A stretch of 64,000 nt of DNA from NCBI GenBank assembly GCA_963814375.1, contig CAWFCQ010000005.1, positions 32,001 to 96,000 on the forward strand. The letters are read 5' to 3'. The DNA is from an uncultured Chloroflexia bacterium (GTDB taxonomy: Bacteria; Chloroflexota; Limnocylindria; QHBO01). The notes beneath the pieces were generated by a model, which made no database searches, was not told where the DNA came from, and saw only the letters and a list, made by a program, of their open reading frames with translations. Numbering within the stretch: position 1 is the stretch's first letter; each line of letters begins with the position of its first letter. The translations under genes and the position numbers were made by a program. Below, one piece after another: positions 1-46,186 of the stretch.

Positions 1-1
1 A

Positions 2-181
2 TGCCATGCGGCGCTGAACGGGACCGTCCCGCTCCGTTGGGGTCTGGACGAGGTCTGGGAGTGGCAGGTGAGGGGCATCGTCATCGGGCTGATCGGAGTT
101 GTCATTCTCGTGCTCGTCAGGAACGGGCCGGTTGGCCCGGCCGGACCGGCCAACTCGTACGACTCAGCATCTGCTGAGTGA
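2..181 (+). CDS. C-terminal end of probable CPBP (CAAX/Abi) intramembrane protease, truncated by window edge
   Basis: Frame 2 reads CHAALNGTVPL...GIVIGLIGVVILVLV...TGA; HxxxN motif followed by a TM helix, as in the next gene. Confidence 0.6.
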   Translation, partial: CHAALNGTVPLRWGLDEVWEWQVRGIVIGLIGVVILVLVRNGPVGPAGPANSYDSASAE

Positions 182-207
182 TCAACTCTCTCGGACGGGA
201 GGATCAG

Positions 208-972
208 ATGGGATCCGTGCTTCGCCGATGGCCACTCGCCAGCTATTTCATCCTTGCCTTCGCGTTCGCGTGGATCCTGATCCCGTTGGTCGCGAACGTC
301 TCGGTGGCGTTTGCTCTCATCGCTCTCTTCGCGCCGGCGCTGGCGGCCATCGTTGTGACCGCTGCCCTCGATGGCTGGAGCGCGGCGCGTCGGCTGATGC
401 GTGATGCTTTCCGGCCGCGCGGATCGCTGATCTGGTACGTGGTGGCGATCCTGCTCCCGTTCGTCCTGGCCGGCATCACGAACCTGGTGAGCCGGACGAT
501 GGGCGCCACGCCTCCGCCGTTCGACGCCTCGGTGCTGCCCATCTCGATAGTGCTGGCCATGCTGGCCATCGGTGAGGAGCTCGGCTGGCGGGGGTTCGCC
601 CTGCCGCGGCTCCAGGCAATTACCCATCCGCTCGTGGCCGCCATCGCGCTGGGGGTGATCTGGGCCGCGTGGCACCTCCCGAACGCCATGATCCCCGGCC
701 TGGAGTATTACGTCACCGCCTTCCCCGTCTTCGCGGCGTATGTGGTGGCCATAACGGTGCTGTTCAGCTGGCTCTACAACAGCGCTCGGAACTCGATCCT
801 CGTGGCGTGGGTCTTCCACGGCGCGATTAACACCGCTCTCGCCGTATTCGCCCTGGAGGACATCGTCGACCAGTTCACGCTCAATGCCCTCGTGTTCGGC
901 GCCGCCGCCGCCGTTGTGGTGATCGCAACCCGCGGTTCGCTCGGACGGACCGGGAGCAGCGGAGTGACTTGA
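208..972 (+). CDS. CPBP family intramembrane glutamic endopeptidase (CAAX protease-like)
   Basis: EELGWRG, WAAWHLP and FHGAIN motifs; multiple TM helices; GGAGG RBS before ATG 208. Confidence 0.9.
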   Translation: MGSVLRRWPLASYFILAFAFAWILIPLVANVSVAFALIALFAPALAAIVVTAALDGWSAARRLMRDAFRPRGSLIWYVVAILLPFVLAGITNLVSRTMGATPPPFDASVLPISIVLAMLAIGEELGWRGFALPRLQAITHPLVAAIALGVIWAAWHLPNAMIPGLEYYVTAFPVFAAYVVAITVLFSWLYNSARNSILVAWVFHGAINTALAVFALEDIVDQFTLNALVFGAAAAVVVIATRGSLGRTGSSGVT

Positions 973-1226
973 GAGCCCGAGGCGCGGCGCACGCCAGCCC
1001 GCCGCGATTTCTAGGTAATCGCGCGAAAGGCAAACTCCGACACTGAAGCAGCCGCGAGCCCGGCCATACCCGCCTCGTGAGCTGGTAGGGAGGATCGGTG
1101 CTTGGGATAGCGGCGGCTTCCGTATGCTGCGCTGGGTCCGCCCGGTCTGCGTCCACAAGAGAGCAGATAACTCGACCGTCTACGCTCCCCTCCACGCTCG
1201 GTGCCACAGCGCATCTGCCGAGATAG

Positions 1227-1265
1227 TCCGAAGTCAGCTGCTCTGATCCACTGAGCTACGGGCGC
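1227..1265 (-). tRNA. 5' half only of tRNA-Arg(TCG), interrupted at the 3' end of the anticodon loop
   Basis: Minus strand GCGCCCG-TA-GCTC-AGTGGATCA-GAGC-A-GCTGA-CT-TCG-GA gives acceptor 5' strand, D arm, anticodon stem 5' strand and loop; the expected TCAGC, T arm and CCA do not follow. Confidence 0.8.
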
Positions 1266-1326
1266 ACGTTCACGCTCGGAGAGAGCGGAAAAATCGATTC
1301 CGCATCAGCTACAGCTAGCGGAACCG

Positions 1327-2418
1327 TCAGTCGGTTGGGCCTTCCGGTGATCCCATAAGGTCCAGCGCGGTCACGGTCTCTTTGGCCATCTCCCTCACGA
1401 GCTCTGCGGCTGGCAGCCGGCGGGACAGGCGCACTCCTTGGCCCGCCCACAGGGACAGGTAGTCGGCACGATCCTGGGTTGCCGCGGCGGCCCGTGCCGG
1501 ACGAGTCAGCGCGTTCTGGAGCGGGAAGGGAAGGATCGCCTCGGCATCGGCGTCGATGCCGGCCATCAGATCGTTGACGATCCCGCGCGCAGGGCGTCCA
1601 GAAAACGCACGCGTGACCCTCGTCTGATCCTCGCGGGCGTCGACGATCGCTTGCTTGTATGACGCGGGGATCCCGGCCTCGTCGCAGGTGAGAAAGGCGG
1701 TGCCAAGCTGGGCGGCCTCGGCTCCGAGAGCCAATGCCGCTGCGATCCCTCTGCCGTCCATGATGCCGCCTGAGGCGATCACCGGGACGCTGACGGCGTC
1801 GACCACCTGAGGAATGAGTGCCATCGTCCCGATCATGGCGGCCTCGAAGCTCAGACCGAACGTACCGCGATGGGCACCGGCCTCGCTGCCTTGCGCCACG
1901 ATGGCGTCGACGCCGGCCGCCTCCAGGGCGCTCGCTTCGTCGACCGTCGTGGCCGTGCCGATGACGAAGAGGCCGCGCGCCTTGACCTCCTCGACCGCAC
2001 CCGGCGGGAGCAACCCGAAGGTGAAGCTGAAGACCGACGCTTCGGTCTCCAGGACCGCCTGGAGTTGATCAGCGAAGGCGAGATCGCTGGGTGCGGAAAG
2101 TGACGGCGGCGCGATGCCGAGCTCGGCATGGACGCCCTTCAGGACCTCGACCATACGCCCCGCGTCTCCGGATGAGTCGGGCATCGGCTGCGGCGCGAAG
2201 AGGTTGAGGCCGAACGGGCGATCGGTGCGCGTTCTGACTGCGGCCGCGGTCTCACGGATCGCGTCGGGGGATGAATAGGCGCAACCGAGAAAGCCCAGCG
2301 CTCCGGCGCGGCATACGGCCGTGACGAGGTCGACCGTAGTCGCGCCGCCCGCCATCGGAGCCTGAATAATGGGATGCTCGATGCCGAGACGTCGCACCAG
2401 CGCGGATTCACGCAGCAT
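1327..2418 (-). CDS. Nitronate monooxygenase family flavoprotein
   Basis: PIIQAPMAGG, QGSEAGAHRG, ASGGIMDGRG, TRAFSGRPARG and SLWAGQ motifs. Confidence 0.93.
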   Translation of the reverse strand: MLRESALVRRLGIEHPIIQAPMAGGATTVDLVTAVCRAGALGFLGCAYSSPDAIRETAAAVRTRTDRPFGLNLFAPQPMPDSSGDAGRMVEVLKGVHAELGIAPPSLSAPSDLAFADQLQAVLETEASVFSFTFGLLPPGAVEEVKARGLFVIGTATTVDEASALEAAGVDAIVAQGSEAGAHRGTFGLSFEAAMIGTMALIPQVVDAVSVPVIASGGIMDGRGIAAALALGAEAAQLGTAFLTCDEAGIPASYKQAIVDAREDQTRVTRAFSGRPARGIVNDLMAGIDADAEAILPFPLQNALTRPARAAAATQDRADYLSLWAGQGVRLSRRLPAAELVREMAKETVTALDLMGSPEGPTD

Positions 2419-10400: not shown

Positions 10401-11508
10401 GCGGGTAGTGCTCCTGACCCTAGGTGACCCGGATCGGGTGACGGGCGGCTATCTCTTTCACCGCCGGCTCGCCGACCGGGCTGCCGAATTCGACATGGCG
10501 ATCACCTTCGTCTCGATCCCGGATGGTCCACTCCCCTACGGAGTGGTCTCCGGACCCGGCTGGCTTCGGGACCGCGCGGTACGAGAAGCCCACGTGGTCG
10601 TCGTCGACAGCATTGCCGCGGCGGCTGCGGCTCCGTGGCTTGGCCGCGTTCGCGTGCCTGTGATGGCAATGATTCACCAACCCGTCGGAGGCATGGACTC
10701 GGGCCGTCTCGGCCGCTGGGCGAGGATTCCACTCGACCGCTGGGCGTACCGTCGAGCCAATCCGCTCATGGTGGCAAGCGAGTGGCTGGTCGAGCAGCTC
10801 GTGGCGGCGAGAATTCCTCGGCGAAAGCTGCGCGTCGTCCCGCCCGGTAAGGACCCTGAAGCCGATAGTGTCTCGGCTCAGCCGGGCGTCCCAAGCATCA
10901 CCAGCTCGGAGCTGCGCCAGGGCCGTCAGATGGCCGCCGTGTGCGTCGCCAACTGGCTCCCCCGCAAGGGTATCGTGGAGCTGCTCGACGCGGTTGCCGC
11001 GCTTCCGGACGACCTCGTTACCCTGCATCTCGTCGGCGATGCGAGCCAGGACAGCTCGTACGGGCCCGCAGTTCACAAGCGGCTCGGCCGAGAGGACCTC
11101 CGGAGCCGGGTCGTGGTCCATGGGCTGGTCTCCGCGAGAGTCGTGGCTCAGATGTATCTCGCCGTCGACGCCTTCGCGCTGCCGAGCTTCGTGGAACCCT
11201 ATGGGACCGTGTGGGGGGAGGCCATGGCCGCGGGGCTTCCGGTCATCGGATGGCGAGCCGGCAACCTTCCGTTCCTGGTCGATCACGAGCGCGAGGGCCT
11301 GCTTGTCCCGGTGGGCGACATAAATGCCCTGAGCGAGGCATTGGCGCGAGCGGCGCGGGACCCTGCGATGCGGGAACGCATGGGCAGCGCGGCACGCACT
11401 CGCGCGGCATCACGGCCGACGTGGGACGAGACGGCAAGCCTCTTCTTCACTGAGATTCGCCAAGTCCTCGGGCGCCCACGAGATCGGCGGCCTGGCCGAG
11501 ATCGGTGA
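10390..11508 (+). CDS. Glycosyltransferase family 4 (TGGY-type)
   Basis: GDPDRVTGGYLFHRR, PRKG and EPYGTVWGEAMAAGLPV; start estimated. Confidence 0.88.
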   Translation: MTRTRVVLLTLGDPDRVTGGYLFHRRLADRAAEFDMAITFVSIPDGPLPYGVVSGPGWLRDRAVREAHVVVVDSIAAAAAAPWLGRVRVPVMAMIHQPVGGMDSGRLGRWARIPLDRWAYRRANPLMVASEWLVEQLVAARIPRRKLRVVPPGKDPEADSVSAQPGVPSITSSELRQGRQMAAVCVANWLPRKGIVELLDAVAALPDDLVTLHLVGDASQDSSYGPAVHKRLGREDLRSRVVVHGLVSARVVAQMYLAVDAFALPSFVEPYGTVWGEAMAAGLPVIGWRAGNLPFLVDHEREGLLVPVGDINALSEALARAARDPAMRERMGSAARTRAASRPTWDETASLFFTEIRQVLGRPRDRRPGRDR

Positions 11509-12142
11509 CCACCTTGTGACTGCTCGCGTGCCCGCCGGCTGAACCACGCCCACCTCGGCGCACGAGAATGGTGTCCATGCCCAACGCGGCTGCGCCGTCC
11601 AGCTGCGCCGGCTCATCATCGACGGCGGTCACCGCGTTCGCCTCGGCATCGAGCGAACCGAGGGCCACTGTTAGCAGCTCCGGCTTGAGGAGGCCAACGT
11701 CGCACGAGGCGAACACTGCGTCGACCATCGGCTGAAGCCCAAGCTCTCCCACCACATTCGCGGCTTCGGCCGACGCATTGGTCACGATGACGAGCCGGAG
11801 CCCCACCCCGCGCATTCGGCGGAGCGCCGGGACAACGTCCGAGTACAACGAAACCCCTCGCTTCCAGTTCGTCCGCTCGCGCTCGGCCAACGCCTGCAGC
11901 GAGCGATGCGAAAGGTCCGATCCGGTGGCGACCCCGGCAGCGGTGAACACTGCGGCGAGGTCGCCGGCAAGAGATCCGTACGCGCCCGTCATTCGCGCCC
12001 TGTGGGTCCCATCCCAGGCCCGACGGGCGGTGTCGGACCGGATGCCGACCATCGCAGCCAGGGCCGCCCGCCCACGCAGCAACGCCGGCCAGTCTGGCTC
12101 GACCAAGGTTCCATACAGGTCAAGGAATACCGTGCCCGTCAC
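11447..12142 (-). CDS. HAD-family hydrolase/phosphatase
   Basis: DLYGTL motif I, TN motif II, KP and VDD motifs; start GTG estimated. Confidence 0.8.
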   Translation of the reverse strand: MTGTVFLDLYGTLVEPDWPALLRGRAALAAMVGIRSDTARRAWDGTHRARMTGAYGSLAGDLAAVFTAAGVATGSDLSHRSLQALAERERTNWKRGVSLYSDVVPALRRMRGVGLRLVIVTNASAEAANVVGELGLQPMVDAVFASCDVGLLKPELLTVALGSLDAEANAVTAVDDEPAQLDGAAALGMDTILVRRGGRGSAGGHASSHKVVTDLGQAADLVGARGLGESQ

Positions 12143-12149
12143 AGGACGG

Positions 12150-12524
12150 CTAGAGCTCCATGTCCACGGTGGCCCATGCAATCGGCGACTCGTGGACCGT
12201 CACCCGAAGCGATTCCAGCGGCGAGGACGGCGTGAGAGTCAGACGGACGTGATCCCACACGTGCTGCGCAACCATCTCCACCGTCGTGCTTTCGCCCGCG
12301 AAGTCCGAGAGGGAATCAAGTCGGGCCGATTCCAGATGGGCCAGGCATGCATCCAATGCCGATCCGAGATGGTCCAGGTCCAGCACCATCCCGCTCTCAT
12401 TGAGCGCCTGCCCCCGAACCACCACTTCCACCCGGTAGTCGTGTTCGTGATCCTCGGCGGCCGACGGCGTTTCCTCCAGCTGGTGCGCTGCGTGAAATGT
12501 CCGGGCAACTCCGACCTCATACAT
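12150..12524 (-). CDS. 6-pyruvoyl-tetrahydropterin synthase/QueD-fold (COG0720) protein
   Basis: FHAAH, HEHDY, TTVE and VHES motifs; no catalytic Cys. Confidence 0.85.
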   Translation of the reverse strand: MYEVGVARTFHAAHQLEETPSAAEDHEHDYRVEVVVRGQALNESGMVLDLDHLGSALDACLAHLESARLDSLSDFAGESTTVEMVAQHVWDHVRLTLTPSSPLESLRVTVHESPIAWATVDMEL

Positions 12525-13521
12525 AGCTCAAGACCACTTGCAAGCACTCCTGTGGGTTCGTGTCCAGCAGCTCGTACGCGGACGCAGCAGCAGGGAACGG
12601 GAAGCGGTGGGTGATCAGGTCCTCCAGGGGCAGCTCCGTCAGCAGGTCCGTAACGAGTCGCGTGCGCCGCTCGCGATCCCACCGAGGCGATATGGCAGGG
12701 TCGAGGGTTGAGACCTGGGAGCTGACCAGCCGAAGCCGTCGCCGATGGAACGCACCGCCCAGCGCCACCGTCACCCCGCGCGTCCCGTACCACGAGGCGA
12801 CCACGATCGTGGCTCCGAACGCCGCCGCGTCGACGCACGACTGGAGCGCAGACGGTACGCCGCTCGATTCGATGGCGACGTCCACCCCGCGCCCACCAGT
12901 CAGATCTCGGATGGCGGCAGCCAGCTCGTCCCCGGGCGGAAGGGCGTGGTGGGCGCCGGCCAGCCGCGAGGCCTCCCTGCGTTTCTCGTGGAGATCCACC
13001 CCGATCACCAGCCCGGCACCGGTCCGACGCAACAGCATCGTGGTCAGCAATCCGACGACCCCCTGACCGATCACCACGACGGCATCACCCAGCCTCGGGT
13101 GTGCGTCGAGCGCCACCGTCGCTGCCGTCTCGAGATTCGCCGTGAACACGCCACGCTCCCAGTTCATCCCCCGCGGCAGTGCAATCGGGAAGTCGGCCGA
13201 CACGACGTACTCGGTCTGGTGCGGATGGTGGACGAAGACCACGTCGTCGGGGGCGAGCAGGTCGACGTCCTTACCGACCTCGATTACCCGGCCGACGCTG
13301 GCGTATCCGAACTTGATGGGGAACCCGAAGCTTCCCGTCACGGTCGGAAGATCCGGCGGAAGGTCGTCCGGAGCTTCGCCGCGGTACACAAGGAGCTCGC
13401 TCCCTGCGCTGATGCCGGAGACGAGTGCCCTCACCCTCACCTCGCTCGGTCCGGTTAGCTGAGAAGCCTCGCTGCGCAGCTCCGCGATGCGCGGAGCAGG
13501 AAACCAGACGGCCTCAGGCAT
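12517..13521 (-). CDS. MDR-superfamily (zinc-binding ADH-like) oxidoreductase
   Basis: SGISAGSE, GYASVG, GQGVVG and SSQV motifs; overlaps both neighbours. Confidence 0.85.
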   Translation of the reverse strand: MPEAVWFPAPRIAELRSEASQLTGPSEVRVRALVSGISAGSELLVYRGEAPDDLPPDLPTVTGSFGFPIKFGYASVGRVIEVGKDVDLLAPDDVVFVHHPHQTEYVVSADFPIALPRGMNWERGVFTANLETAATVALDAHPRLGDAVVVIGQGVVGLLTTMLLRRTGAGLVIGVDLHEKRREASRLAGAHHALPPGDELAAAIRDLTGGRGVDVAIESSGVPSALQSCVDAAAFGATIVVASWYGTRGVTVALGGAFHRRRLRLVSSQVSTLDPAISPRWDRERRTRLVTDLLTELPLEDLITHRFPFPAAASAYELLDTNPQECLQVVLSYV

Positions 13522-14803
13522 CCGTCGCGCTTCCGGGCTCGAGCTCTCCGTCAAATACAACGTCGGGTCCAACCTGGGAGAAAGCGGCGCGCCGAAATGA
13601 GATTGCGTCGGCAAGGCGCCTGATGTCGAGGTCACCCACGGCCTCGATGCCGGCCCCAAGGATGGTCGGGGCGATCGAGACGACCAGGCGTCGAACCCTC
13701 CTCTCCCGGAGCAATGAGGTGATCACCCCGGCCCCTCCCTCTACCAAGACCGATGCGAGACGGCGCCGTCCAAGCTCATCCAGTAGCTCGCCCAGATCGA
13801 GGTGCCCGTTCGGCGTGCTCGGCAACACCAGCACCTCTGCGCCCGCTGCCGCGAAGGCGCGTCGCCTGCTTCGCGGTGCGCGAGCGGTGGTGGCCAGCAG
13901 TGTTGGTGCCGCGCAATCGGTGACGACCCTTGCCGTCAGAGGGATGCGCAGCGTGCTGTCAATGACGATGCGCGTGGGCGAGGGCCCTTCGACCAGGCGA
14001 ACCGTCAGCCTCGGATCGTCGGCCATGACGGTGCCAGCACCGACCATCACGGCCGAATGAGAAGCACGCAGTTCGTGGGCGAATCGTGTCGATGCTTCAC
14101 CACTGATCCACTGGGACTCGCCTGACCGCGTGGCGAGCCGTCCATCGAGGGTCTGTGCGTAGTGGATGGTCACAGGAGGCCGAGGCAGTTGCAGCGGGGC
14201 TTCGTGGCCGAGGCGGGCGATCTTCGTGGCGAGGTAGGTCGAGTTCACGCCGTTGGGCAGAGCGGGGAGCTGCACGCGCTCGACCACCTGAATGCCCGCC
14301 GCTTCGAGCGCCGCGAGCTTGTCGGGGTTGTTGGTCATCAGCCGCATGCGCGTGAGACCCAGCTCGGACAGGATCGCCGCTGCTCCACGGTAGTCGCGAG
14401 CGTCGACCGGCAGGCCCAGGGCACTGTTCGCATCGACGGTGTCCAGACCGGCATCCTGCAGCCCGTACGCTCGCAACTTGTTCGCCAGGCCGATGCCCCT
14501 TCCCTCCTGTCTCAGGTAGAGGAGGACGCCGACGCCCTCTGACGTGATGGCGGTTAGCGCGCGGCCCAGCTGCTCGCCGCAGTCACACCGAAGCGAGCCG
14601 ACGACGTCGCCCGTCCAGCATTCAGAATGCAGCCTGACCAACGGAGCGGTCGCGGATCCGAGGTCGCCGTGTACCAGCGCGATCGGCTCCGTCCCGTCCA
14701 CGCGGTCTGCGAAGACGATCGCCTCGAACGGCCCCAGGCGCGTGGGCAGACACGCGGTCGACAGGCGCTCGACTCGGGCCTCGATGTCACGGGCAGAGTC
14801 CAT
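13514..14803 (-). CDS. ribA: GTP cyclohydrolase II fused to RibD-type pyrimidine reductase domain
   Basis: RLHSECWTGD..SLRCDCG, QEGRGIGL and TNNPDK, then AQTLDGR..SQWIS, GTVMADDPRLTVR and VEGG. Confidence 0.9.
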   Translation of the reverse strand: MDSARDIEARVERLSTACLPTRLGPFEAIVFADRVDGTEPIALVHGDLGSATAPLVRLHSECWTGDVVGSLRCDCGEQLGRALTAITSEGVGVLLYLRQEGRGIGLANKLRAYGLQDAGLDTVDANSALGLPVDARDYRGAAAILSELGLTRMRLMTNNPDKLAALEAAGIQVVERVQLPALPNGVNSTYLATKIARLGHEAPLQLPRPPVTIHYAQTLDGRLATRSGESQWISGEASTRFAHELRASHSAVMVGAGTVMADDPRLTVRLVEGPSPTRIVIDSTLRIPLTARVVTDCAAPTLLATTARAPRSRRRAFAAAGAEVLVLPSTPNGHLDLGELLDELGRRRLASVLVEGGAGVITSLLRERRVRRLVVSIAPTILGAGIEAVGDLDIRRLADAISFRRAAFSQVGPDVVFDGELEPGSATDA

Positions 14804-23212: not shown

Positions 23213-23615
23213 TCACCCGACGTGGACGGATGGTCGCCGGCGCTCAACCTGCTCAACGAGGACGGCGCGCAGCGCGGGACGGTCAACATCCTCGGCAGTA
23301 CGGCACTTGACGTGCCGGATGCGCTTGCCCGTCCCCTCGATCAGGCTCATCGGGGTCGCCGAGAAGGGCGCCGTCGGCGAGCTGAACGTTGACGTGAGCG
23401 GTGTGCGGGATGAGCCCGATCGCGAAGTCGCGCATCCGCACGCCCTCGGATGATGCGAAGCCGAATGCGAGGAGCCGATCCGGCAGATCCAGCTGCTCGG
23501 TGAGGTCCGGCTCGATGTCGCGGACGAGGGCCCGGAGGCGCCGGAAGACATCGGCCACCACCGGCGAGTGTTCGCCGAGAAGCGGGTCGAGCTCGTCGGG
23601 CGACATCGCGGTCAC
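23213..23615 (-). CDS. DUF1801-like protein, frameshifted near 23345
   Basis: HVNVQLADGALL.DP in one frame and LIEGTGKRIRHVK in another. Confidence 0.75.
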
Positions 23616-24040
23616 CAGAGGGCGAGGCCGGTCGACTCGTCGGGCACGCGGACGAGCGAAACTCCGGTGATCTCACGGATCATCACCTCGACCATGAACA
23701 CCTCGCAGCCGCGCACGAGGTGACCGCCGGTGCATGCGCCGGTGGCATCGGCGAAGGTGGCGTGGGCGTGCAGGAAGGGGCGGTCGTCGCGCAGGCTGAT
23801 GTTGCCGGTGAAGCCGACGATCTCGTGGTGCGTGTCGGACCCGAGGTCCACGTACTGCCGCCGCTCCTGGTCGAAGTAGGCGTATCGCGCGCGACGCACT
23901 GCGCCGATGGCCGTGACCTGGCCCGCCAGGATCCCCTGCTCGAGGCAGTGCGCTTCGATCGCCTCGACCAGGTCGGTCCCCGCCTCGAGGCGTCCCACGA
24001 AGCCGCGGCCGGCGCTGAGCTCCTGGAATCCGGGGGGCAT
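23612..24040 (-). CDS. PPC/DUF296 domain protein
   Basis: RLEAG.DL, AIGAV, GNIS..FLHAH and GGHL. Confidence 0.88.
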   Translation of the reverse strand: MPPGFQELSAGRGFVGRLEAGTDLVEAIEAHCLEQGILAGQVTAIGAVRRARYAYFDQERRQYVDLGSDTHHEIVGFTGNISLRDDRPFLHAHATFADATGACTGGHLVRGCEVFMVEVMIREITGVSLVRVPDESTGLALW

Positions 24041-24048
24041 CGGTCCTC

Positions 24049-26589
24049 CTATTCGAACTGCTTGAGGTTGCGAACGATCGGCAGCGACGCCGCAACGCGA
24101 GCAGGATAGATGCCCGCCAGCGCGGCCACTCCAGTCCCGAGGAGCAGCACCGCGACGAGGAGCGGCCACGGCAGGCGCAACCCCGCCGACAGCTCGGGTG
24201 TCGCCGGGCTGCCGCCGACGAGGGCCAGCGCGACGAGCACGCCGATGCCGACGGCCAGGACGCCCGCGATGGCGCCCATGATCGCCGCCTCCGAGACGAC
24301 CATCGCCTGGACCTGGCCGACGGTCATGCCGTGGCTTCGCAGGATCGCGATCTCGCGCTCGCGCTCGTGGACGCCGACGCCGAGCGTGTTCACGATCCCG
24401 AGGGCGCCGATGACGACGGCGATCAGGGCGAGCACGTCGAACAGCCCGACGAGCCGATCGAGCGACATCGACAGCTCCGCGGCGAGGTCGCGCGGCGTGA
24501 GCGGCTCAGCCGCTAGCTGGACGGCCGTGTCACGGACCGAAGCGGCGAAGGCGGACGGCGCGATCTGGGGCTGCGGCACCATCATCCACAGCGACGCCGC
24601 GGTGGCGCCGAATCCGTCGCGGGCGTCCGCTGCGCCGACGATCAGCGCTCCGTCCTCGGTGCGGGCCGGGATGGAGTGCTCGAGCAGGCCGGCGACGACC
24701 AGGTCCCTGGGTTCGCCGGAAGCTGCGGCGAGGGCGATCGTGTCGCCCACGCCGATTCCGGCCCGCTGGGCGAGCGTCGTCGGGACCAGCACCGCCCCAC
24801 CCGCGCGCAGTGCGGCGAAGGCATCGGCTCGGTCGGCGCCCTCGATCAGAAGCGCGCCCGCGTCCTCGTACAGGTTCACGTCGATCCCGGCCAGCGCGGC
24901 CTCCTCGCGCTCGGTGGGGGTGATGCGGATGACCGGCGCCTCGAGCACGGGGCTCGCCATCAGGACCCCAGGCGTGGCCTCGAACGCGGGCCGGAAGGTC
25001 TCCGCCTCGAGCGGGAGGCTGGTGCGTATGGCATGGCCGCCGGGCATGATCGAGGCGATCCGCCCTTCACTGCCGGCCCGCGCCGACTCGGCGACGGTGC
25101 CGAGCGCGACGACGGCGGCCAGCGCGACCATCATGGCGCCCACGGTGAGGCCGGTCCGCGTTCGGTCTCGCGCCAGGCTGACCCGGCCGAGCATGCCCTC
25201 GGCGCCGAATAGCCACTCGAACGGGCGCCCGACGATGCGCCCCAGCGGCTCGAGGACGAAGGCGGCCGCAAGCGCCCCGCCGAGAAGAAGGCCGACCGAG
25301 ATGAGGGCCGGCAGGATGGGGAGGCTCTGCCCGCTCGCGACGACGATGCCGAGACCGATGAGCGTGATGACGAGCTCGGCGAGGACCAGGGGCCGCATGC
25401 GGTCGATCAGGCCGCGGCCCGCGTGATGGGGCGGTCGCAACGCGTCGAGCGGGGTGAGGCCGGCCGCGCGCCGAGCCGGACCGATTGCGCCCACGAGGGT
25501 GACGAGCACGCCGAGCCCGAAGGCCGCGAGCAGACCGCCCACCGGCAGCGGAAGCCCCACCACCAGCACCGCGCGGGTCGACGAGAGGACCCCGATCATG
25601 ACCACCGCCATCAGCACCCCGAGCCCGATGCCCAGCAGGCTGCCGACGATCGCGAGCACGGCTGCCTGGCGCAGGACGATCCCGAGCACCTGGCGCGAGG
25701 TCGTCCCCGCGGCCCGCAGCAGTCCGAGCTCGCGCATCCGCTCCCCGACCGTCGCGGCCAGCGTGTTGCCCACCAGGAACGTGCCCACCGCCACCGCAAC
25801 GAGGCCGAACACGAGCGCAACCCCCACGAACCCGGCCTGGGCTGAAGCGAACTGCGCCGCCGTATCTTCCGGGGTCTCCACCACGTACGGCTCTTCCAGC
25901 CCGCCGACAACTGCCTCGATCCCCTGAGGCGTGGGATCAACGCCGAGGTCGAGATCGATGTAGCGGACCGGCGAGGGAACCTCGAACGAGGCATCGAGGG
26001 TCTCGCGAGGAGCGATGATCAGCTCGCCGCGCTCGAGGGCCGCCAGGCCGCTGTCGGCGGCGAGCCCGACGATGCGCAGCGGCGGCATGCCCTCACGCCG
26101 CCCCGACAGTCGCAGCTCGTCGCCGAGACCGAGCCCGTTCCGCGCCGCCCACGATGCCGCGACCACGGCCTCACTCGCATCATCGGCCGCCAGCCGCCGT
26201 CCGGCGACGAGAGCCAGGTCGCGGATTCGAGCATCCTCCCCCGGATCGATGCCGAGGACGAGCAGGGTGAAGACGCGCTCGTTCGGCCCGGGGGCGGTGG
26301 ACACCGTCAGGCGCCGCTCGCTGACGGGGGCGGCCGCAAGCACCGCGGCGTCGTCGCGCAACGACTGCAGCGTGCGCGGGCCGAACCCCCCGTCCTCGAA
26401 CGCGCGGAGCCGCAGGTCGGCATGGCCGAGGAGCTCTGCGGTCACGCTCTCGAGGGCCTGCTGCGAGGCGGAACCGACGACGATCGTCGCCGCCAGCACC
26501 GCCACCCCGAGCGCGATGCCGATGAGCGTCAGCGCGGTCCGCAGCGGGCGCGCCAGCAGACCGCGCCAGGCGAGGGTCGCCAGGTACAT
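24049..26589 (-). CDS. FtsX/MacB-like ABC transporter permease
   Basis: Duplicated architecture: RTALT..GIALGV, ERMRELGLLRAAG, EREIAILRSHG. Confidence 0.9.
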   Translation of the reverse strand: MYLATLAWRGLLARPLRTALTLIGIALGVAVLAATIVVGSASQQALESVTAELLGHADLRLRAFEDGGFGPRTLQSLRDDAAVLAAAPVSERRLTVSTAPGPNERVFTLLVLGIDPGEDARIRDLALVAGRRLAADDASEAVVAASWAARNGLGLGDELRLSGRREGMPPLRIVGLAADSGLAALERGELIIAPRETLDASFEVPSPVRYIDLDLGVDPTPQGIEAVVGGLEEPYVVETPEDTAAQFASAQAGFVGVALVFGLVAVAVGTFLVGNTLAATVGERMRELGLLRAAGTTSRQVLGIVLRQAAVLAIVGSLLGIGLGVLMAVVMIGVLSSTRAVLVVGLPLPVGGLLAAFGLGVLVTLVGAIGPARRAAGLTPLDALRPPHHAGRGLIDRMRPLVLAELVITLIGLGIVVASGQSLPILPALISVGLLLGGALAAAFVLEPLGRIVGRPFEWLFGAEGMLGRVSLARDRTRTGLTVGAMMVALAAVVALGTVAESARAGSEGRIASIMPGGHAIRTSLPLEAETFRPAFEATPGVLMASPVLEAPVIRITPTEREEAALAGIDVNLYEDAGALLIEGADRADAFAALRAGGAVLVPTTLAQRAGIGVGDTIALAAASGEPRDLVVAGLLEHSIPARTEDGALIVGAADARDGFGATAASLWMMVPQPQIAPSAFAASVRDTAVQLAAEPLTPRDLAAELSMSLDRLVGLFDVLALIAVVIGALGIVNTLGVGVHEREREIAILRSHGMTVGQVQAMVVSEAAIMGAIAGVLAVGIGVLVALALVGGSPATPELSAGLRLPWPLLVAVLLLGTGVAALAGIYPARVAASLPIVRNLKQFE

Positions 26590-26592
26590 GGC

Positions 26593-27339
26593 TTACAGCC
26601 CGTGCTCGACCAGACGGCGAATCAGGCGGCTCGCGTCCGGGTCGGATCGTCTGCCGAGCACGATCTCATCGCGCACCTCGCCATCCCGCACCACGAGCAC
26701 GCGGTCCGCGTAGGCCGCGGCGCGGGCGTCGTGGGTGACCAGCACGATCGTCTGGCCCAAGCGGTCGGCCGAGTCCCACAGGAGGCGGAGGATCTCGGTG
26801 CCGGTGGTGTAGTCCAGGTTCCCGGTCGGCTCATCGGCGAGGAGGATGGCGGGCCCTGTGGCGAGCGCGCGCGCCAGGGCGACTCGCTGCTGCTCGCCGG
26901 CCGAGAGCTGGCCCGGCCGGTGGCGAGCCTTCTTCGTCAGGCCGACCATGGCGAGCAGCTCGTCGATCCGCTCGCGATTGTTGGCGATGGTGTCGCCCGC
27001 GATGAGGAAGGGCAGGGCCACGTTCTCCTCGACATCGAGGAGCGGGATGAGGTTGAAGAACTGGAAGACGAAGCCGGTCTTCGCCCGGCGCGTGAGCGTC
27101 CGCTGCTCCTCGTCGAGACCGGAGATGCTGATGCCGTCGATCACGACCTCACCCGAGCTCGGCAGGTCGAGCCCGCCGAGCAGGTGGAGCATGGTCGACT
27201 TGCCCGAACCGGACTCGCCCATGATCGCCACGAACTCGCCCTTCTCGACGGCGAGCGAGACGCCGCGCAGCGCCTCGACTTCACCCGCCCCTAGGCGGTA
27301 CCGCTTGACGAGGTCACGCGCCTCGAGGATCACGGGCAT
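26593..27339 (-). CDS. LolD/MacB-type ABC ATP-binding protein
   Basis: GESGSGKST, LSAGEQQR and ADEPTGNLD. Confidence 0.95.
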   Translation of the reverse strand: MPVILEARDLVKRYRLGAGEVEALRGVSLAVEKGEFVAIMGESGSGKSTMLHLLGGLDLPSSGEVVIDGISISGLDEEQRTLTRRAKTGFVFQFFNLIPLLDVEENVALPFLIAGDTIANNRERIDELLAMVGLTKKARHRPGQLSAGEQQRVALARALATGPAILLADEPTGNLDYTTGTEILRLLWDSADRLGQTIVLVTHDARAAAYADRVLVVRDGEVRDEIVLGRRSDPDASRLIRRLVEHGL

Positions 27340-27385
27340 TGGCGGAGTCTATCGGCCGGGAAGTTGCTGATGCGGGCGCCTCGGC

Positions 27386-28393
27386 TCAGCCGAAGAGGAA
27401 GCCGAGGACCGCGCCGACGATCCCGTCGAGGAGGCCGGGCTCCGAGCGCGGAGCCGCCGCGACGTTCATTGCCCCCGCGTCGTCTGCGGCGGTCGCCGGG
27501 GCCGACGCGGCGACCCGCATCGCGGCTGCGCGCGCAGCCGCCAGCTCATCGGCGCGCAGCCGGCTGGCGAGGTCAAGCCGCTCCGGGCTCGATACCACCG
27601 TCGCGACGCCATCGATGCCCGCGGTCGAGACCGGCCGCTGGGGCGCCTCGACGGCGACGTGCTTGGCCTTGGGCGGAGCGGGTGCAGCTGCTTGCGGGGC
27701 CGCGGGAGCCGCGCTGCCTCCGCCGCCGCCCGAGCCTCCGCCGGACCCACCACCGCCCGACCCACCACCGCCGGACGGTGGACGTGGGGCCGGAGCCGGA
27801 GGAGGCGCCGGCGGTCGCGGCGCGGGGGCGGGGGCTGCGGCATTCGCCTGGAGGAAGAGCTCGGTGTACATGCGCGTGTTCTGCACGTTGCCGAGGAATG
27901 CCTTTGCGGTCGTAGCGGCGGCGCCGACGGCACCGTGCGTGAATGATCGGTTGAGGACATTGGCTCGGTGGCCGGCGGACGCCATGAACTGCTCGTGGAC
28001 GCTGACCGGCGATGCCGCATCCGAGTGACCGGCGTTCCAGCCGATGTTCTCGCCCGCCCAGGCGTACTGGAGGCCGCTCGAGTCGTAGTAGGCATAGACG
28101 AGGCAGCCGCAGCCTGGGATGGTGTGACTGAAGTAGTTCTTGGCGAGCATGTCCGAGCTTCGCCAGCGGGCGAGGCCCAGAAGGGTCCCGTGCTGCTGGA
28201 GCGGCGCCATGCCGTTGTTCGATCGCGCACCGTTGAGCAGCTGCCAGAGGGTGGCCTCGGCGGCGCCCTGGTTCCAGCCGCTGGTCGCGCTCGGGCTCCA
28301 GGCAAGCGCTCCCGCAGCGAAGACGGCGCTGAAGCCGAAGGCGATCGCGCGCGTGACGACGCGGCGCGGCCGTTGAGCAGAACCCATGAGCAT
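27386..28393 (-). CDS. Secreted CAP (SCP) domain protein with Pro/Gly-rich tail
   Basis: Signal peptide, NYFSH, GENIG and FMASAGHRAN; GGGS repeats. Confidence 0.88.
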   Translation of the reverse strand: MLMGSAQRPRRVVTRAIAFGFSAVFAAGALAWSPSATSGWNQGAAEATLWQLLNGARSNNGMAPLQQHGTLLGLARWRSSDMLAKNYFSHTIPGCGCLVYAYYDSSGLQYAWAGENIGWNAGHSDAASPVSVHEQFMASAGHRANVLNRSFTHGAVGAAATTAKAFLGNVQNTRMYTELFLQANAAAPAPAPRPPAPPPAPAPRPPSGGGGSGGGGSGGGSGGGGGSAAPAAPQAAAPAPPKAKHVAVEAPQRPVSTAGIDGVATVVSSPERLDLASRLRADELAAARAAAMRVAASAPATAADDAGAMNVAAAPRSEPGLLDGIVGAVLGFLFG

Positions 28394-28596
28394 CCCGGAA
28401 CTCCGTGCGGCGGTGTCGGGCGGCTCGGGTCGCCCTGTCGATACGCTACGGACGGGCGGACGAATGTCAGTAGCCGAGTCGTCCCGGTTGGTGGGGTGAC
28501 TCGGCCCGCGCCAGGTACCAGTGGGACCCGGACCATTCGTGCAACTCCCCGGCACGCAACGTGCGGGAAGGATTCCCTGCTGCTCGGGGGAATGGA

Positions 28597-29007
28597 ATGA
28601 AGCGCCACTCGGTCCTCGTCGTCGACGACGAGCAAGCCGTCCGATCCCTCTATGCCGATGCCCTCGAGGAGGCGGGCCACGCGGTGGCGATCGCGATCGA
28701 TGGCACCGATGCCCTGGAGCGGATGCGTCGAGGGTCGCACCCGTGTGTCGTCCTGGCGGACGCGCACATGCCGCGGATGGACGGCTTCGAGCTCGCACGC
28801 GAGGCGGGGAACGATCCGCAGCTGGCGAGCATCCCGATCGTCGTGGTCACCGGCGACCGCATCCTGTCGTTCAGCTCGCCCGCGCGCGACAAGCCCTTCT
28901 CTGTGCCGGAGCTGAACGCGCTCGTCCAGCGCTCATGCAGCCTGCATCGCGAGACCGAGCCTGCTCGCGACGATGGACGGGAGCCGAAGCCCGGCGGCTT
29001 GGCATAG
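28597..29007 (+). CDS. Stand-alone response regulator receiver
   Basis: VLVVDDE, D..MPRMDG, VTG and KPF. Confidence 0.9.
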   Translation: MKRHSVLVVDDEQAVRSLYADALEEAGHAVAIAIDGTDALERMRRGSHPCVVLADAHMPRMDGFELAREAGNDPQLASIPIVVVTGDRILSFSSPARDKPFSVPELNALVQRSCSLHRETEPARDDGREPKPGGLA

Positions 29008-29400: not shown

Positions 29401-30753
29401 TCAGGCGAGCCCATTGCGCCGAGCGACCTCGGAGTACCACCGCGCCGAGTCCTTCGGGATGCGCCGCTGGGTGGCGTAGTCGACGTACGTGATGCCGAAC
29501 CGCGGCCCATACCCGAGGGCCCACTCGAAGTTATCGAGCAGCGACCACGTGAAGTAGCCGCGCACGTCGACGCCCCGATTGATCGCACGCTCGAGCGCGG
29601 CGATGTGGGTTCGCATGAACTCCACCCTTCGCGCGTCATGGATCTCACCGTCGGCGGACGGCCCATCGTTGACGGCGCAGCCGTTCTCTGTGATCAGGAA
29701 CGGGACCGATCCGTAGTCCTTCGCGAGGCGCAGGAGCAGATCGGTGAAGCAGTCGGGAACCATCTCCCAGCCGACATCGGACCGCGGGATCTCCGGCCTC
29801 GGCTCGATGCTGATGGCAAATGGGAGCTCGCTGGCCTCGTCGGGCGGCGGCGCACGCACGATCTGCCGCGAGTAGTAGTTGACGCCCAGGAAGTCGATCG
29901 GCCGGTTGATGCGACCGAGGTCTCCGTCCCGAATCCAGTCGAGCGAGAAACGGCCGGCGTAATGGTCGAGCAGCTCGGCCGGATAGGCGCCCCGGAAGAT
30001 CGGGTCGAGATACCAGCGGTTGCGATACGCGTCGGCCATCGCGACGGCGGCGTTGTCCGCATCCGTGTCGGACTCGGGATAGGTCGGATACAGGTCGAGC
30101 GTGATGCCGATGGGTGCCGCCACCCCAGCCGCGCGATGCGCGTCGACCGCCGCCCCGTGGCTGAGGAGGAGGTGGTGAGCGACGCGGAGCTCGGCCTCGA
30201 GGTCGGTCACGCCCGGCGCGTGGCGCCCCTGTCGATGCGCGACCGCGGCGAAGACCCACGGCTCGTTGTGGGTGATCCACCACGCGACCCCGTCGCCGAG
30301 CGCCTCGTACACGATGGCGGCGAACTCCCCGAAACGATCGACGATGTCGCGGTTCTGAAATCCGCCGCCGTCGTCCTGGAGCGCCTGCGGCAGGTCCCAG
30401 TGGTACAGCGTCGGCGCCGGCCGGATGCCACGCTCGACGAGCCGATCGACGAGGCGCCGGTAGAAGTCGATCCCCTTCTGGTTGGGTGCGCCGCGACCAT
30501 CGGGCTGGATGCGCGGCCAGTCGACGCTGAACCGATAGGCGTTCAGGCCGTACGAGGCCATCAGCTCGATGTCATCGGCCCAGCGATGGTAGTGATCGCA
30601 GGCGACGTCGCCGGTCTCGCCGTTGGCGACTTTGCCGGGCGTGCGGCAGAAGGTGTCCCAGATCGACGTGCCGCGACCGTCCTCGCCGACCGCCCCCTCG
30701 ATCTGGTAGCTGCTGGTCGCGGTGCCCCAGGCGAAGCCGTCCGGGAATGGCAT
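29401..30753 (-). CDS. GH1 beta-glucosidase
   Basis: FAWGTATSSYQIEG, TLYHWDLP, HNEP, ITENG and DNFEW. Confidence 0.95.
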   Translation of the reverse strand: MPFPDGFAWGTATSSYQIEGAVGEDGRGTSIWDTFCRTPGKVANGETGDVACDHYHRWADDIELMASYGLNAYRFSVDWPRIQPDGRGAPNQKGIDFYRRLVDRLVERGIRPAPTLYHWDLPQALQDDGGGFQNRDIVDRFGEFAAIVYEALGDGVAWWITHNEPWVFAAVAHRQGRHAPGVTDLEAELRVAHHLLLSHGAAVDAHRAAGVAAPIGITLDLYPTYPESDTDADNAAVAMADAYRNRWYLDPIFRGAYPAELLDHYAGRFSLDWIRDGDLGRINRPIDFLGVNYYSRQIVRAPPPDEASELPFAISIEPRPEIPRSDVGWEMVPDCFTDLLLRLAKDYGSVPFLITENGCAVNDGPSADGEIHDARRVEFMRTHIAALERAINRGVDVRGYFTWSLLDNFEWALGYGPRFGITYVDYATQRRIPKDSARWYSEVARRNGLA

Positions 30754-30760
30754 GCTCCGC

Positions 30761-31814
30761 TCAGGCCCAGGGCAGCTGAATCGGGATGAGGGCGTTGAGG
30801 AAGAGGCCGCCGATGAGCAGCGCACCGGCGCGGCGGGTGTGGATGAACGCGGCGCCCACGAACCACAGCGGCCAGCCGACGTAGGCGTGGGGCGCGACCT
30901 CCGGCCTCGGCTTCGGCGAAGACCGCGAGCACCTCGAGGAGGCGCGGCACGCCGAGGAGCACGAGCGCAACCCACGGGCCGATGAAGCCGACGGCCGCGG
31001 CGCCGATGACGATCGGGTAGAAGGCGACCATCATCACCTGCGCCACACGGCGGGCGGTCGCCTCGCCCAGGATGACGGGCAGGGTTCGGATGCGCTTGGC
31101 CGCATCGGCGTCGATCTTGTCGATGTGCTTCCCGAACAGCACGGTGGTGACGAGGATCGCGTATGGCAGCGAGGCGAGCCAGACCCACCCGGGGATCTGG
31201 CCGGTGGCGACGAAGAAGGTGCCGCCCACCATCAGCGGGCCCCAGACGATGAACACCCCCGGCTCCCCGAGCCCGATGTGCTTGAGCCGGATCGGCGGGG
31301 CGACGTAGAAGACGCTCACGAAGAGGCCAGCCAGCGCGAACACGATGACGAGCGGTCCGCGCTGGGTCGCGAGGAACAGCATGATCGCGAGGTCGATCGC
31401 GTTGGCGACAAGGATGGCGATCCCGAGCTGGCGCTTGGTGACCCACCCCGACAGCACCGGGTGCGGGGCGTACAGCGCCCGCACGTAGTCCGCGGTGTCG
31501 ACCCCGCCTTCCAGGTCGAAGTAGTCGTTGATCATGTTGTTGGCGGCGTGCGCGACCACGAGTCCGATGACCGCCAGCGCCAGCAGCCCCCAGTCGACGG
31601 AGACCTCGCCGGTAAGGCGAGCGGCGCCCACTGCCAGCAGGCCGCCGATGAGGCCCGAGGTGGCCGTCATGCTGAAGACCGCCGCCCGCGTGATCACGAG
31701 CCACTTGCTGATCGCATCGGGAGGCGCCGCCATGCCCTCGGGCAGGTTTGCCGTCCGCATCACCGTCCGCCACACGGCCACGCGCTGGGGGAAGGTCATC
31801 GATCTCTCGGCCAT
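30761..31814 (-). CDS. UbiA/MenA-family prenyltransferase, frameshift near 30905
   Basis: ANNMINDYFD..GVD, LKHIGLGE, D..ADAA..RTL; C-terminus in another frame. Confidence 0.82.
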
Positions 31815-31884: not shown

Positions 31885-31961
31885 TGGGGTGGCCTACGGG
31901 TCTCGAACCCGTAACCTTCGGAGCCACAATCCGATGCTCTGCCTATTGAGCTAAGGCCACC
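31885..31961 (-). tRNA. tRNA-His(GTG)
   Basis: Full cloverleaf with G-1:C73, anticodon GTG, TTCGAGA T loop and encoded CCA. Confidence 0.97.
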
Positions 31962-44538: not shown

Positions 44539-45066
44539 ATGGAGGAACGAACGCTCGACAGCCGCCCCGCGTGGAGCGGGCGCGTGATCTCCGTCCGCGT
44601 CGACGAGGTCGAGCTGTCCGATGGGCGGCGCAGCGCGCGCGAGATCGTCGACCATCCCGGCGCCGTCGCGATCCTCGCCTGGGACGGCGAGCGGCTGGCC
44701 ATGGTGCGCCAGTGGCGTCATGCCACCGGCCAGGAGCTGCTCGAGGTCCCCGCCGGCACCCTCGAGCCCGACGAGGCGCCCGACGCGACCGCTCGACGCG
44801 AGCTGTCCGAGGAGGTCGGCCTGGCGGCCGCGGGCTGGGAGGCCGGCCCGACCTTCTACACGGCACCCGGCTTCTGCACCGAGCTCATGCACCTCTACCT
44901 CGCGACCGACCTGACCGAGGCGCTGGCCGATGGCGACGAGGACGAGGAGCTCGAGGCGAGCTGGATGACGCTGGATGACGCGCTGGCGGCGACCGACGAT
45001 GGCCGCATCGTCGACGCCAAGACGATGGTCGCACTCGCCTGGCTGGCGCGACGCCTGGGGCGCTGA
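44539..45066 (+). CDS. NUDIX hydrolase, ADP-ribose pyrophosphatase-like
   Basis: REIVDHPGAV, PAGTLE..E....ARRELSEEVG and DAKT; TACGAT-N7-ATG. Confidence 0.92.
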   Translation: MEERTLDSRPAWSGRVISVRVDEVELSDGRRSAREIVDHPGAVAILAWDGERLAMVRQWRHATGQELLEVPAGTLEPDEAPDATARRELSEEVGLAAAGWEAGPTFYTAPGFCTELMHLYLATDLTEALADGDEDEELEASWMTLDDALAATDDGRIVDAKTMVALAWLARRLGR

Positions 45067-45103
45067 CGCCGCTGGCACGCGAGTTGCCTCCGCCGCCGTC
45101 CAC

Positions 45104-46186
45104 ATGGCAATCGAGCTCGACAATCCGGTCGCCTCGGCCGAAGACGCCGGCCTGCGGTACCTCCCCGATACGGTCCCTGGCGTTCGGCGCCGCCGCGCCG
45201 GGCGAGGGTTCACGTACGAGGATCCCGACGGCACCCGCATCTCCGAACCTGGTCGCCTCGAATGGATCCGCGGGCTCGCCATTCCGCCGGCCTGGACCGA
45301 TGTCTGGATCAGCCCGATCCGACGCGGTCATCTCCAGGCCACCGGCCGAGATGCGCGGGGGCGCAAGCAGTACCGCTATCACCCGCGCTGGCGTTCGGTC
45401 CGTGACGAGGCCAAGTACGGACGCCTGATCGAGTTCGCGCGGGCGCTGCCGAGGATCCGGCGCCGAACCGACGCCGACCTGCGACGCCGCGGCATGCCGC
45501 GCGAGAAGGTGCTGGCGCTCGTGGTCAAGCTCCTCGAGGCGACCCTGATCCGGGTCGGGAACGAGGAGTACGCGCGGGACAACAAGAGCTTCGGGCTCTC
45601 GACGCTGCGCGAGCGTCACGTGACGATCGACGGCGGCGAAGCGCGCTTCACGTTCAAGGGCAAGTCCGGACGGGAGCACGAGGTCCCGATCCGTGATCGA
45701 CGCCTCGTCCGCCTCATCCGCCAGTCCCTGGAGATCCCGGGCCAGGAGCTGTTCCAGTATCTCGACGAGGAGTGTCAGCGGCGCCCGATCGACTCCGGCG
45801 ACGTCAACGACTACCTGCGTGACATCAGCGGCGAGGCGTTCACGGCCAAGGACTTCAGGACCTGGGCGGGCACCGTCGCCGCATCCCTGGCCCTCCAGGA
45901 GTGGCTCGAGATCGACGACGAGGCAGGCCGCAAGCGCGCGATCGTGCGGGCGATCGAGGAGGTGGCCGAGCAGCTCGGAAACACCCCGGCCGTGTGCCGA
46001 GCCTGCTACGTCCATCCTGACGTCATCGGCTCCTACCTCGACGGAACCCTCGTCGACGCCCTCAGCGAGCGCGCTCGCGGCGCGGGTCGCGGGGCCCACG
46101 CCCTGCGTCCCGAAGAGGCCGCCGTGCTGGGTCTGCTCCAGGCTCGGCTGGCTCGGGAGTCACGTTCGCGGCGGTCCGCCGCCTGA
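45104..46186 (+). CDS. DNA topoisomerase IB
   Basis: IPPAWTDVWI, GRKQYRYH, IRVGN, FKGKSG, AKDFRTW and LGNTPAVCRACY. Confidence 0.95.
   Translation: MAIELDNPVASAEDAGLRYLPDTVPGVRRRRAGRGFTYEDPDGTRISEPGRLEWIRGLAIPPAWTDVWISPIRRGHLQATGRDARGRKQYRYHPRWRSVRDEAKYGRLIEFARALPRIRRRTDADLRRRGMPREKVLALVVKLLEATLIRVGNEEYARDNKSFGLSTLRERHVTIDGGEARFTFKGKSGREHEVPIRDRRLVRLIRQSLEIPGQELFQYLDEECQRRPIDSGDVNDYLRDISGEAFTAKDFRTWAGTVAASLALQEWLEIDDEAGRKRAIVRAIEEVAEQLGNTPAVCRACYVHPDVIGSYLDGTLVDALSERARGAGRGAHALRPEEAAVLGLLQARLARESRSRRSAA

Follow-up and report, generated by a model that had tools for sequence, protein, structure and literature searches.

Split tRNA genes of Nanoarchaeum equitans occur as separate halves: the 5′ half has a counterpart gene for the 3′ half, the two are joined through complementary sequences, and an intact gene is lacking. 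Cis-mobilizable elements (CIMEs) are att-flanked remnants without an integrase of their own. One integrative element that replaces the 5′ part of a tRNA gene is said to have to bring a promoter with it, and reportedly has an integrase. The Islander report counts 3919 islands, of which 159 carry a 5′ fragment and 3760 a 3′ fragment of the tRNA gene, gives 2083 with anticodon-centred sites, and accepts a 5′ fragment positioned upstream of a tDNA that has the same orientation (PMC4383910). Pairs of partial and complete tRNAs that bracket inserts are described as widespread in a second report (PMC9897764).

The locus discussed in the following sections lies near the left edge of a stretch of 64,000 nt from an uncultured Chloroflexia bacterium, and this whole stretch is termed the window. 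The feature is of an ordinary, known kind, a 5′ tRNA-gene fragment of the less common type.

The tRNA-Arg(UCG) fragment and its surroundings

A clean 5′ half of tRNA-Arg(UCG) is read on the minus strand at 1265-1227, where it covers tRNA positions 1-38 in 39 nt and ends after the anticodon loop. Its sequence is GCGCCCG-TA-GCTC-AGTGGATCA-GAGC-A-GCTGA-CTTCGGA, which comprises the acceptor 5′ strand, the full D arm, the anticodon-stem 5′ strand GCTGA, and the 7-nt loop CTTCGGA with the anticodon TCG. The bases after the loop are CTATCTCGGCAGATG... instead of the expected TCAGC. The initial annotation had described this half with the same limits, and the description holds on comparison with a related contig, L001, whose intact tRNA-Arg(tcg) matches the fragment in 38 of 39 columns over its first 38 nt (blastn E 6e-11). 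An extra C in the D loop is the sole difference. The fragment that L001 itself carries is matched in 38 of 39 columns as well.

It had also been suggested that standard tRNA finders could miss the fragment, which is indeed the case. ARAGORN reports tRNA-His (31885-31960, minus strand) alone in the 64-kb window and makes zero calls on the fragment under relaxed, intron-tolerant or mitochondrial settings, and Rfam at the gathering score returns only the same tRNA-His. In E-value mode, the Rfam tRNA model (RF00005) aligns to 1193-1265 with 22.4 bits (E 0.037) against a cut-off of 29; the L001 fragment scores 23.7 bits against this cut-off. A canonical tRNA gene is recognised by a full cloverleaf, with an RF00005 match at the gathering score or an ARAGORN call, and neither the window fragment nor the L001 fragment shows these.

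The search for a 3′ half within the window gave a negative result, in agreement with the initial annotation. The 22-nt T-arm/acceptor stretch of the relative has 0 matches in the window at up to 3 mismatches, a generic T-loop pattern gives 7 matches where 7.9 are expected, which is chance level, and the whole-window Rfam scan at E ≤ 1 adds no tRNA match. No tRNA-Arg gene is seen in the 64-kb window by ARAGORN or by Rfam at E ≤ 1, and the fragment alone is visible. The switch to non-tRNA sequence after the loop was likewise confirmed: when the sequence past position 38 is aligned with the intact 3′ half, its score is equalled by 986 of 1000 shuffles for the window and by 425 of 1000 for L001, so that the recognisably homologous 3′ half by which a decayed whole-tRNA pseudogene is identified was found in neither. 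Since homology stops after position 38 and similarity to the 3′ half is absent, the true breakpoint is placed at the 3′ edge of the anticodon loop. The Rfam glocal alignment has to force a 12-nt “anticodon loop”, a stem GCUGA/UCGGC, a T-arm stub and a 6/7 acceptor stem. A decayed full-length tRNA, an armless tRNA and a 5-nt intron were considered and rejected on the sub-cut-off Rfam score, the blank ARAGORN result and the lack of homology in the 3′ part. The sequence comparison supports the view that recombination or duplication, not decay of a whole tRNA, produced the junction at the 3′ edge of the anticodon loop.

On the 5′ side of the fragment, the conserved flank is formed by a nitronate monooxygenase (NMO/FabK-like) gene at 1327..2418 (PF03060, E 1.5e-91), which lies on the strand of the fragment, the minus strand, and ends 62 nt upstream of it. 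The other side, where inserted DNA would be, is visible within the window for 1.2 kb. It holds a CPBP/Rce1-like membrane protease gene at 178..972 on the plus strand (PF02517, E 6.5e-15), convergent with the fragment, and the 3′ end of an ORF at 2..181 (plus strand) that runs off the window and has 59 visible aa and no family match. Relatives of the CPBP protein exist elsewhere at 93, 89, 83, 81 and 81% identity, and the gene is not obviously accessory; as candidate island cargo it is uninformative, as these 81-93% relatives come without genomic context. Of the 78 window ORFs of at least 230 aa, 74 were scanned and none matched an integrase, recombinase or transposase family; the other four are antisense to genes with clear Pfam hits.

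Three further observations in the window are recorded here. An ORF at 44975-46183 (plus strand), 44 kb from the fragment, contains the domains of a bacterial type IB topoisomerase, a Topoisom_I catalytic core (E 1.5e-37) and Top1B_N_bact, and is the only enzyme with a tyrosine-recombinase-like fold seen in the window. Beside tRNA-His, a 790-aa ORF at 29404-31814 (minus strand) contains a GH1 domain in residues 342-788 only, and upstream of this domain it overlaps an ORF for a UbiA prenyltransferase that has the same strand; this is probably an over-extended start call. A weak match to the Rfam Chloroflexi-1 RNA at 10602-10676 (plus strand; 24.9 bits against a cut-off of 80, E 0.92) lies inside a glycosyltransferase ORF and is probably due to chance.

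A related locus with an intact tRNA gene

Relatives were sought by a genome-contig search with the NMO protein as query, and the best 80 of 488 relatives' loci were examined. L001, a contig of a Chloroflexia MAG, is the sole close relative among these best 80 of 488, the next locus having 68% NMO identity. Its NMO protein is 89% identical to that of the window in the best segment (319/360 aa; 87% at the nucleotide level). The same fragment lies at 11227-11264 of L001, directly after the NMO ortholog and at the position matching that in the window. Zero matches to the fragment query were obtained in the other 79 of the best 80 loci. The same junction is present in an independent assembly, which makes a misassembly at 1227, a possibility raised in the initial annotation, unlikely.

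L001 further contains an intact tRNA-Arg(tcg) at 14661-14736 (ARAGORN; Rfam 72.9 bits), on the same strand as the fragment. The fragment is located 3434 nt upstream of the intact gene, both being on the plus strand of the locus, and the intact gene has its own homologous leader. Among the 67 of the 80 loci covered by ARAGORN (L001-L067), tRNA-Arg was found in L001 alone. Between the two copies are genes for an ECF sigma factor, a beta-propeller-like protein and a beta-lactamase-family hydrolase. No recombinase family was detected in the 17 ORFs of L001 from 11.5 to 21 kb.

The intact gene bears directly on whether the tRNA is split. A genuinely split tRNA-Arg(UCG), whose 5′ half is expressed at this locus and either is joined to or made whole by a 3′ half far away, or becomes whole only once an element has been excised, would agree with the intact 5′ half and its retained leader. 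L001, which has the matching fragment, nevertheless has an intact gene 3.4 kb away; a 3′ half is absent from the window; and excision across the L001 repeat would leave one whole gene either way. A split tRNA gene is recognised by a separate 3′ half gene together with the lack of an intact gene, whereas no 3′ half is found in the window and an intact gene is found in L001. As a relative with the same fragment possesses the whole gene, we regard the split tRNA as highly improbable. The initial annotation had proposed an element that either splits the tRNA or supplies its own 5′ half; the second option fits L001 and the first does not. The associated proposal that the tRNA would be functional only after excision is not supported, given the intact tRNA-Arg(tcg) 3,434 nt downstream in L001. 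An empty site, for which the initial annotation suggested looking in relatives, was not seen; the single close relative among the 80 loci is occupied.

The window and L001 are related over a second region. A block that encodes a MacB/FtsX permease, an ABC ATPase and a CAP-domain protein is common to window 23614-28957 and L001 885-6241 (71% at the nucleotide level), and its order relative to NMO is common to both. The distance from this block to NMO is ~21 kb in the window and ~3.7 kb in L001, and large indels therefore distinguish the two genomes on either side of NMO.

Two features of L001 are noted in passing. Three direct repeats of 25-40 nt, with spacings of 174 and 207 nt, are present at 12769-13184 inside the beta-propeller-like ORF (12139-13302), consistent with repeated blades. 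Antisense to the intact tRNA-Arg, at 14661-14734 on the minus strand, a match to the Rfam family Plastid-ycf2 5′UTR was obtained with 32.9 bits against a cut-off of 65.7; this family evidently resembles a reverse-complemented tRNA.

Anatomy of the repeat and origin of the fragment

A repeat search in L001 gives a direct repeat of 70 nt, 87% identical, spaced by 3434 nt. The duplicated unit consists of a leader of ~50-60 nt and tRNA positions 1-38. Between the L001 fragment and the L001 intact gene, tRNA positions 1-38 are identical (38/38) and the leaders (-60 to -1) are 69% identical, whereas after the break the identity is at background, 54% over +1 to +70 and 50% over +71 to +170. In the window, the leader at 1266..1315 (minus strand) is homologous to the leaders of both L001 copies, with identities over -60 to -1 of 65% to that of the L001 fragment and 61% to that of the intact gene. 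Blastn aligns window 1305-1227 with L001 14621-14698 at 82% and window 1296-1157 with L001 11196-11334 at 84%. The local alignments of the window leader with the L001 leaders numbered leader3 and leader1 are matched by 1 and 2 of 2000 shuffles, respectively, and that between the fragment leader and the intact-gene leader of L001 by 0 of 2000. The search for a sigma-70-type promoter or a terminator around the fragment or the L001 leader returned 0 sites.

With moderate confidence, we favour the reading that window 1315-1227 (minus strand) is the displaced copy of a direct repeat, left by an insertion that supplied its own leader and 5′ half. This reading is drawn from L001, which has the same leftover and a whole gene 3.4 kb away. 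A circular element carrying its own leader and the 5′ half of the tRNA-Arg gene would have recombined with the chromosomal gene, presumably through the action of an integrase, and strand exchange would have taken place within the 7-nt anticodon loop, that is, at an att site of the anticodon-centred type, of the less frequent variety with a leftover 5′ fragment. The promoter and 5′ half present beforehand would then end up joined to foreign DNA, as the fragment beside NMO, while the element-borne leader and 5′ half would join the original 3′ half, so that a functional gene is formed where the insert ends, away from NMO. A displaced 5′ fragment upstream of a regenerated gene is the known minority layout of tRNA-gene insertions in which the incoming DNA brings the 5′ portion, and, with identity ending at the anticodon loop, it is their accepted signature. 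In the genome of the window, the intact copy would be located to the left of base 1, and the inserted DNA may include the CPBP genes. Read in this way, the fragment is a scar, or an attL site at the very most, rather than a tRNA, and a split tRNA is not involved.

In favour of the insertion reading, the L001 fragment and intact gene are identical over tRNA 1-38 and at background from position 39. The two L001 copies differ at 0 of 38 columns in the 5′ half and at 19 of 61 in the leader (Fisher p = 3.6e-5), and the combination of 38/38 with a 69% leader fits a second copy that came from elsewhere and was kept functional, while equal-age neutral duplicates fit it less well. Against it, a recombinase is absent from the ORFs scanned in L001 and the window, the genes are ordinary-looking, and the GC content is unremarkable: 0.665 in the L001 interval against 0.63-0.70 in its flanks, and 0.659 in window 1-1226, with no deviation. 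Similarity between window and L001 also continues past the junction, at 83% over 70 nt. Under the insertion model this post-junction stretch would be element DNA, which implies related elements or a shared insertion.

The post-junction stretch (1157..1226, minus strand) is not tRNA-derived and agrees with L001 in 60 of 72 columns (83%). Gapped alignments with the three leaders are matched by 0-79 of 2000 shuffles, which suggests that the whole stretch is loosely leader-like. A 16-nt leader motif, AGTTATCTGCTCTCTT, is present in exact copy at 1157..1172 (minus strand), and its match to L001 leader3 is reached by 0 of 1000 shuffles; a degenerate copy (12/15) at 1279..1293 (minus strand) is inside the fragment's own leader. 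In its 16-17-nt form, AGTTATCYGCTCTCTT(T), the motif repeats 54-70 nt past the junction in both the window (1157-1172) and L001 (11319-11335). It is also found upstream of the L001 intact gene (14632-14648), and degenerate copies occur in the leaders of both fragments. The window and L001 can be aligned for 70-85 nt past the junction, ending just beyond this motif; over +71 to +170 the identity is 55%, at background. Beyond ~85 nt the content differs, with the ECF sigma factor, beta-propeller-like and hydrolase genes in L001 and the CPBP gene in the window. As a general tRNA-upstream signal the motif was rejected, as it is absent upstream of tRNA-His. We also note a short direct repeat, CCGAGCGTG (GAGCGTG in L001), at 1193-1201 and 1270-1278 of the window (minus strand) and at the equivalent places in L001. 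In both genomes, one copy is 5 nt from the fragment on its upstream side and another begins 26 nt beyond the break, and a third copy, GAGCGTAG, comes after the CCGAGCGTG pair.

The leader-like character of the post-junction stretch gives the locus the order leader, 5′ half, leader-like stretch, insert, leader, tRNA, and this order is what would be left if a partial duplication without an integrase, either a tandem copy of ~100-120 nt containing the leader and tRNA 1-38 or a truncated second gene copy, had produced a pseudo-tRNA and unrelated DNA had later entered at the downstream leader motif. The motif and leader alignments described above agree with such a history, as do the 17-nt motif copies of L001 at 11319-11335 and 14632-14648 (94%), which bracket a 3.3-kb interval, the end of alignability just after the motif, and the lack of a recombinase in the 17 L001 ORFs and 74 of 78 window ORFs scanned. 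It would, on the other hand, require two separate events, duplication and insertion; a break falling precisely on the 3′ edge of the anticodon loop, the hallmark of anticodon-centred att sites (PMC4383910), would have to be a coincidence; and the 38/38 tRNA part against the 69% leader misfits neutral copies of equal age. We therefore consider partial duplication an unlikely origin, though one that retains some weight.

Insertion, as the favoured reading, has also to accommodate an uneven conservation. At the 4-fold synonymous sites of NMO, the window and L001 are 71.5% identical (153/214), so that 1 difference in 39 columns of the 5′ half has P = 3e-5 at this divergence of 28.5%; an old scar common to both genomes would be expected to have diverged more. 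The fragment (38/39) and the following 70 nt (83%) are conserved above the 4-fold sites (71.5%), and these above the leader (65%). This pattern could be due to related elements that inserted independently and recently, to conversion of the fragment by the intact copy, or to selection. The third of these would make the fragment, together with the leader that it keeps and the 70 conserved nt, a selected element in this clade, which may be a transcribed small RNA resembling a tRNA half, or a live attL of an integrase-less element moved in trans, retained for excision by an integrase encoded elsewhere. Apart from the conservation itself, 10 of the 12 columns that differ are unpaired in an RNAalifold consensus fitted to the same two sequences. 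Opposed to this, folding is no more stable than that of shuffles (z = +0.8, +0.8, +0.6 and -0.3), the two minimum-energy structures differ, complementarity between the motif and the 5′ half is at chance (124-367 of 1000 shuffles), and no Rfam family is reached at the cut-off. The two sequences in all are too few for covariation, and gene conversion or recent independent insertions would also account for the conservation. A selected element is accordingly judged improbable, less so than a split tRNA. A stable or conserved RNA structure was rejected as evidence on the z values of +0.8 to -0.3, on the two-sequence basis of the consensus, and because the apparent pairing between the motif and tRNA 21-32 is at chance level. 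An origin of the junction from a phage or plasmid was also rejected: matches are confined to tRNA-Arg 5′ parts, in one phage and two plasmid records, and none extends past the tRNA part.

Of the integration junction first proposed, what remains is a junction made by recombination or duplication where the anticodon loop ends, while its failure to restore the tRNA is not upheld, the tRNA being restored in L001. The proposed element extending to the left with the CPBP genes lacks backing: no recombinase was found in 74 of 78 window ORFs or in the 17 L001 ORFs, and 70-85 nt are alignable past the junction. The initial annotation had held out a plain pseudo-tRNA in case relatives carried the same truncation between collinear flanks with no recombinase nearby; L001 does agree with the window in the truncation and in the right flank, and a recombinase was not found in it, but its left flank is collinear for ~85 nt only.

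Comparison with known systems

The value of the locus is mostly one of annotation: a tRNA gene fragment marks a site of DNA insertion beside tRNA-Arg(UCG) in an uncultured Chloroflexia lineage, and the insertion is of the less common type in which the 5′ part of the gene, together with its promoter region, comes from the incoming DNA. It also illustrates that a “split tRNA” call made from one window can be settled by one relative. If the selected element were true, the leader, the 5′ half and the 70-nt tail would be more than a dead scar, and the uneven conservation would matter only if selection is shown to act on the fragment.

The split tRNAs of Nanoarchaeum equitans resemble the fragment in having a stand-alone 5′ half that ends near the anticodon loop; they differ in that here no 3′ half is found in the window and an intact gene is present in L001. 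CIMEs are similar in that att-like direct repeats flank a short interval without a recombinase in L001, which would putatively be mobilised in trans. The integrative element that replaces the 5′ part of a tRNA gene is comparable in that the repeat here includes the leader, as the promoter that such an element reportedly brings would require, and different in that the integrase which it is said to have was not found among the ORFs scanned here. PYG1 of Pyrococcus yayanosii, with similar pairs, shares with this locus a partial tRNA copy that confuses or escapes tRNA finders (PMC9897764). Those archaeal inserts are of viral or mobile nature, 9-23 kb long and with 44-bp repeats, in contrast to the 3.4-kb interval of L001, which is from a Chloroflexia genome and in which no integrase was found (PMC9897764).

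The 5′-fragment islands of Islander (PMC4383910) are compared feature by feature. The L001 interval is 3.4 kb long, lacks an integrase, and has a repeat that includes a diverged leader of ~50-60 nt, in all of which it differs from those islands. A PF00589-type integrase, which Islander looks for inside the island, was found in 0 of 17 L001 ORFs and 0 of 74 window ORFs; as no recombinase was found, the L001 interval would not pass the Islander integrase filter. A tDNA with its cognate fragment is present in L001 (14661-14736 and 11227-11264), whereas the window shows the fragment only. The crossover sublocation is the anticodon loop, with identity over tRNA 1-38 and background from position 39. 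As in the 5′-fragment islands, the 5′ fragment of L001 precedes the intact tDNA on one and the same strand, at a distance of 3434 nt, the block of identity reaches no further than the anticodon loop, and variable genes separate the copies, as seen from L001 and the window (PMC4383910).
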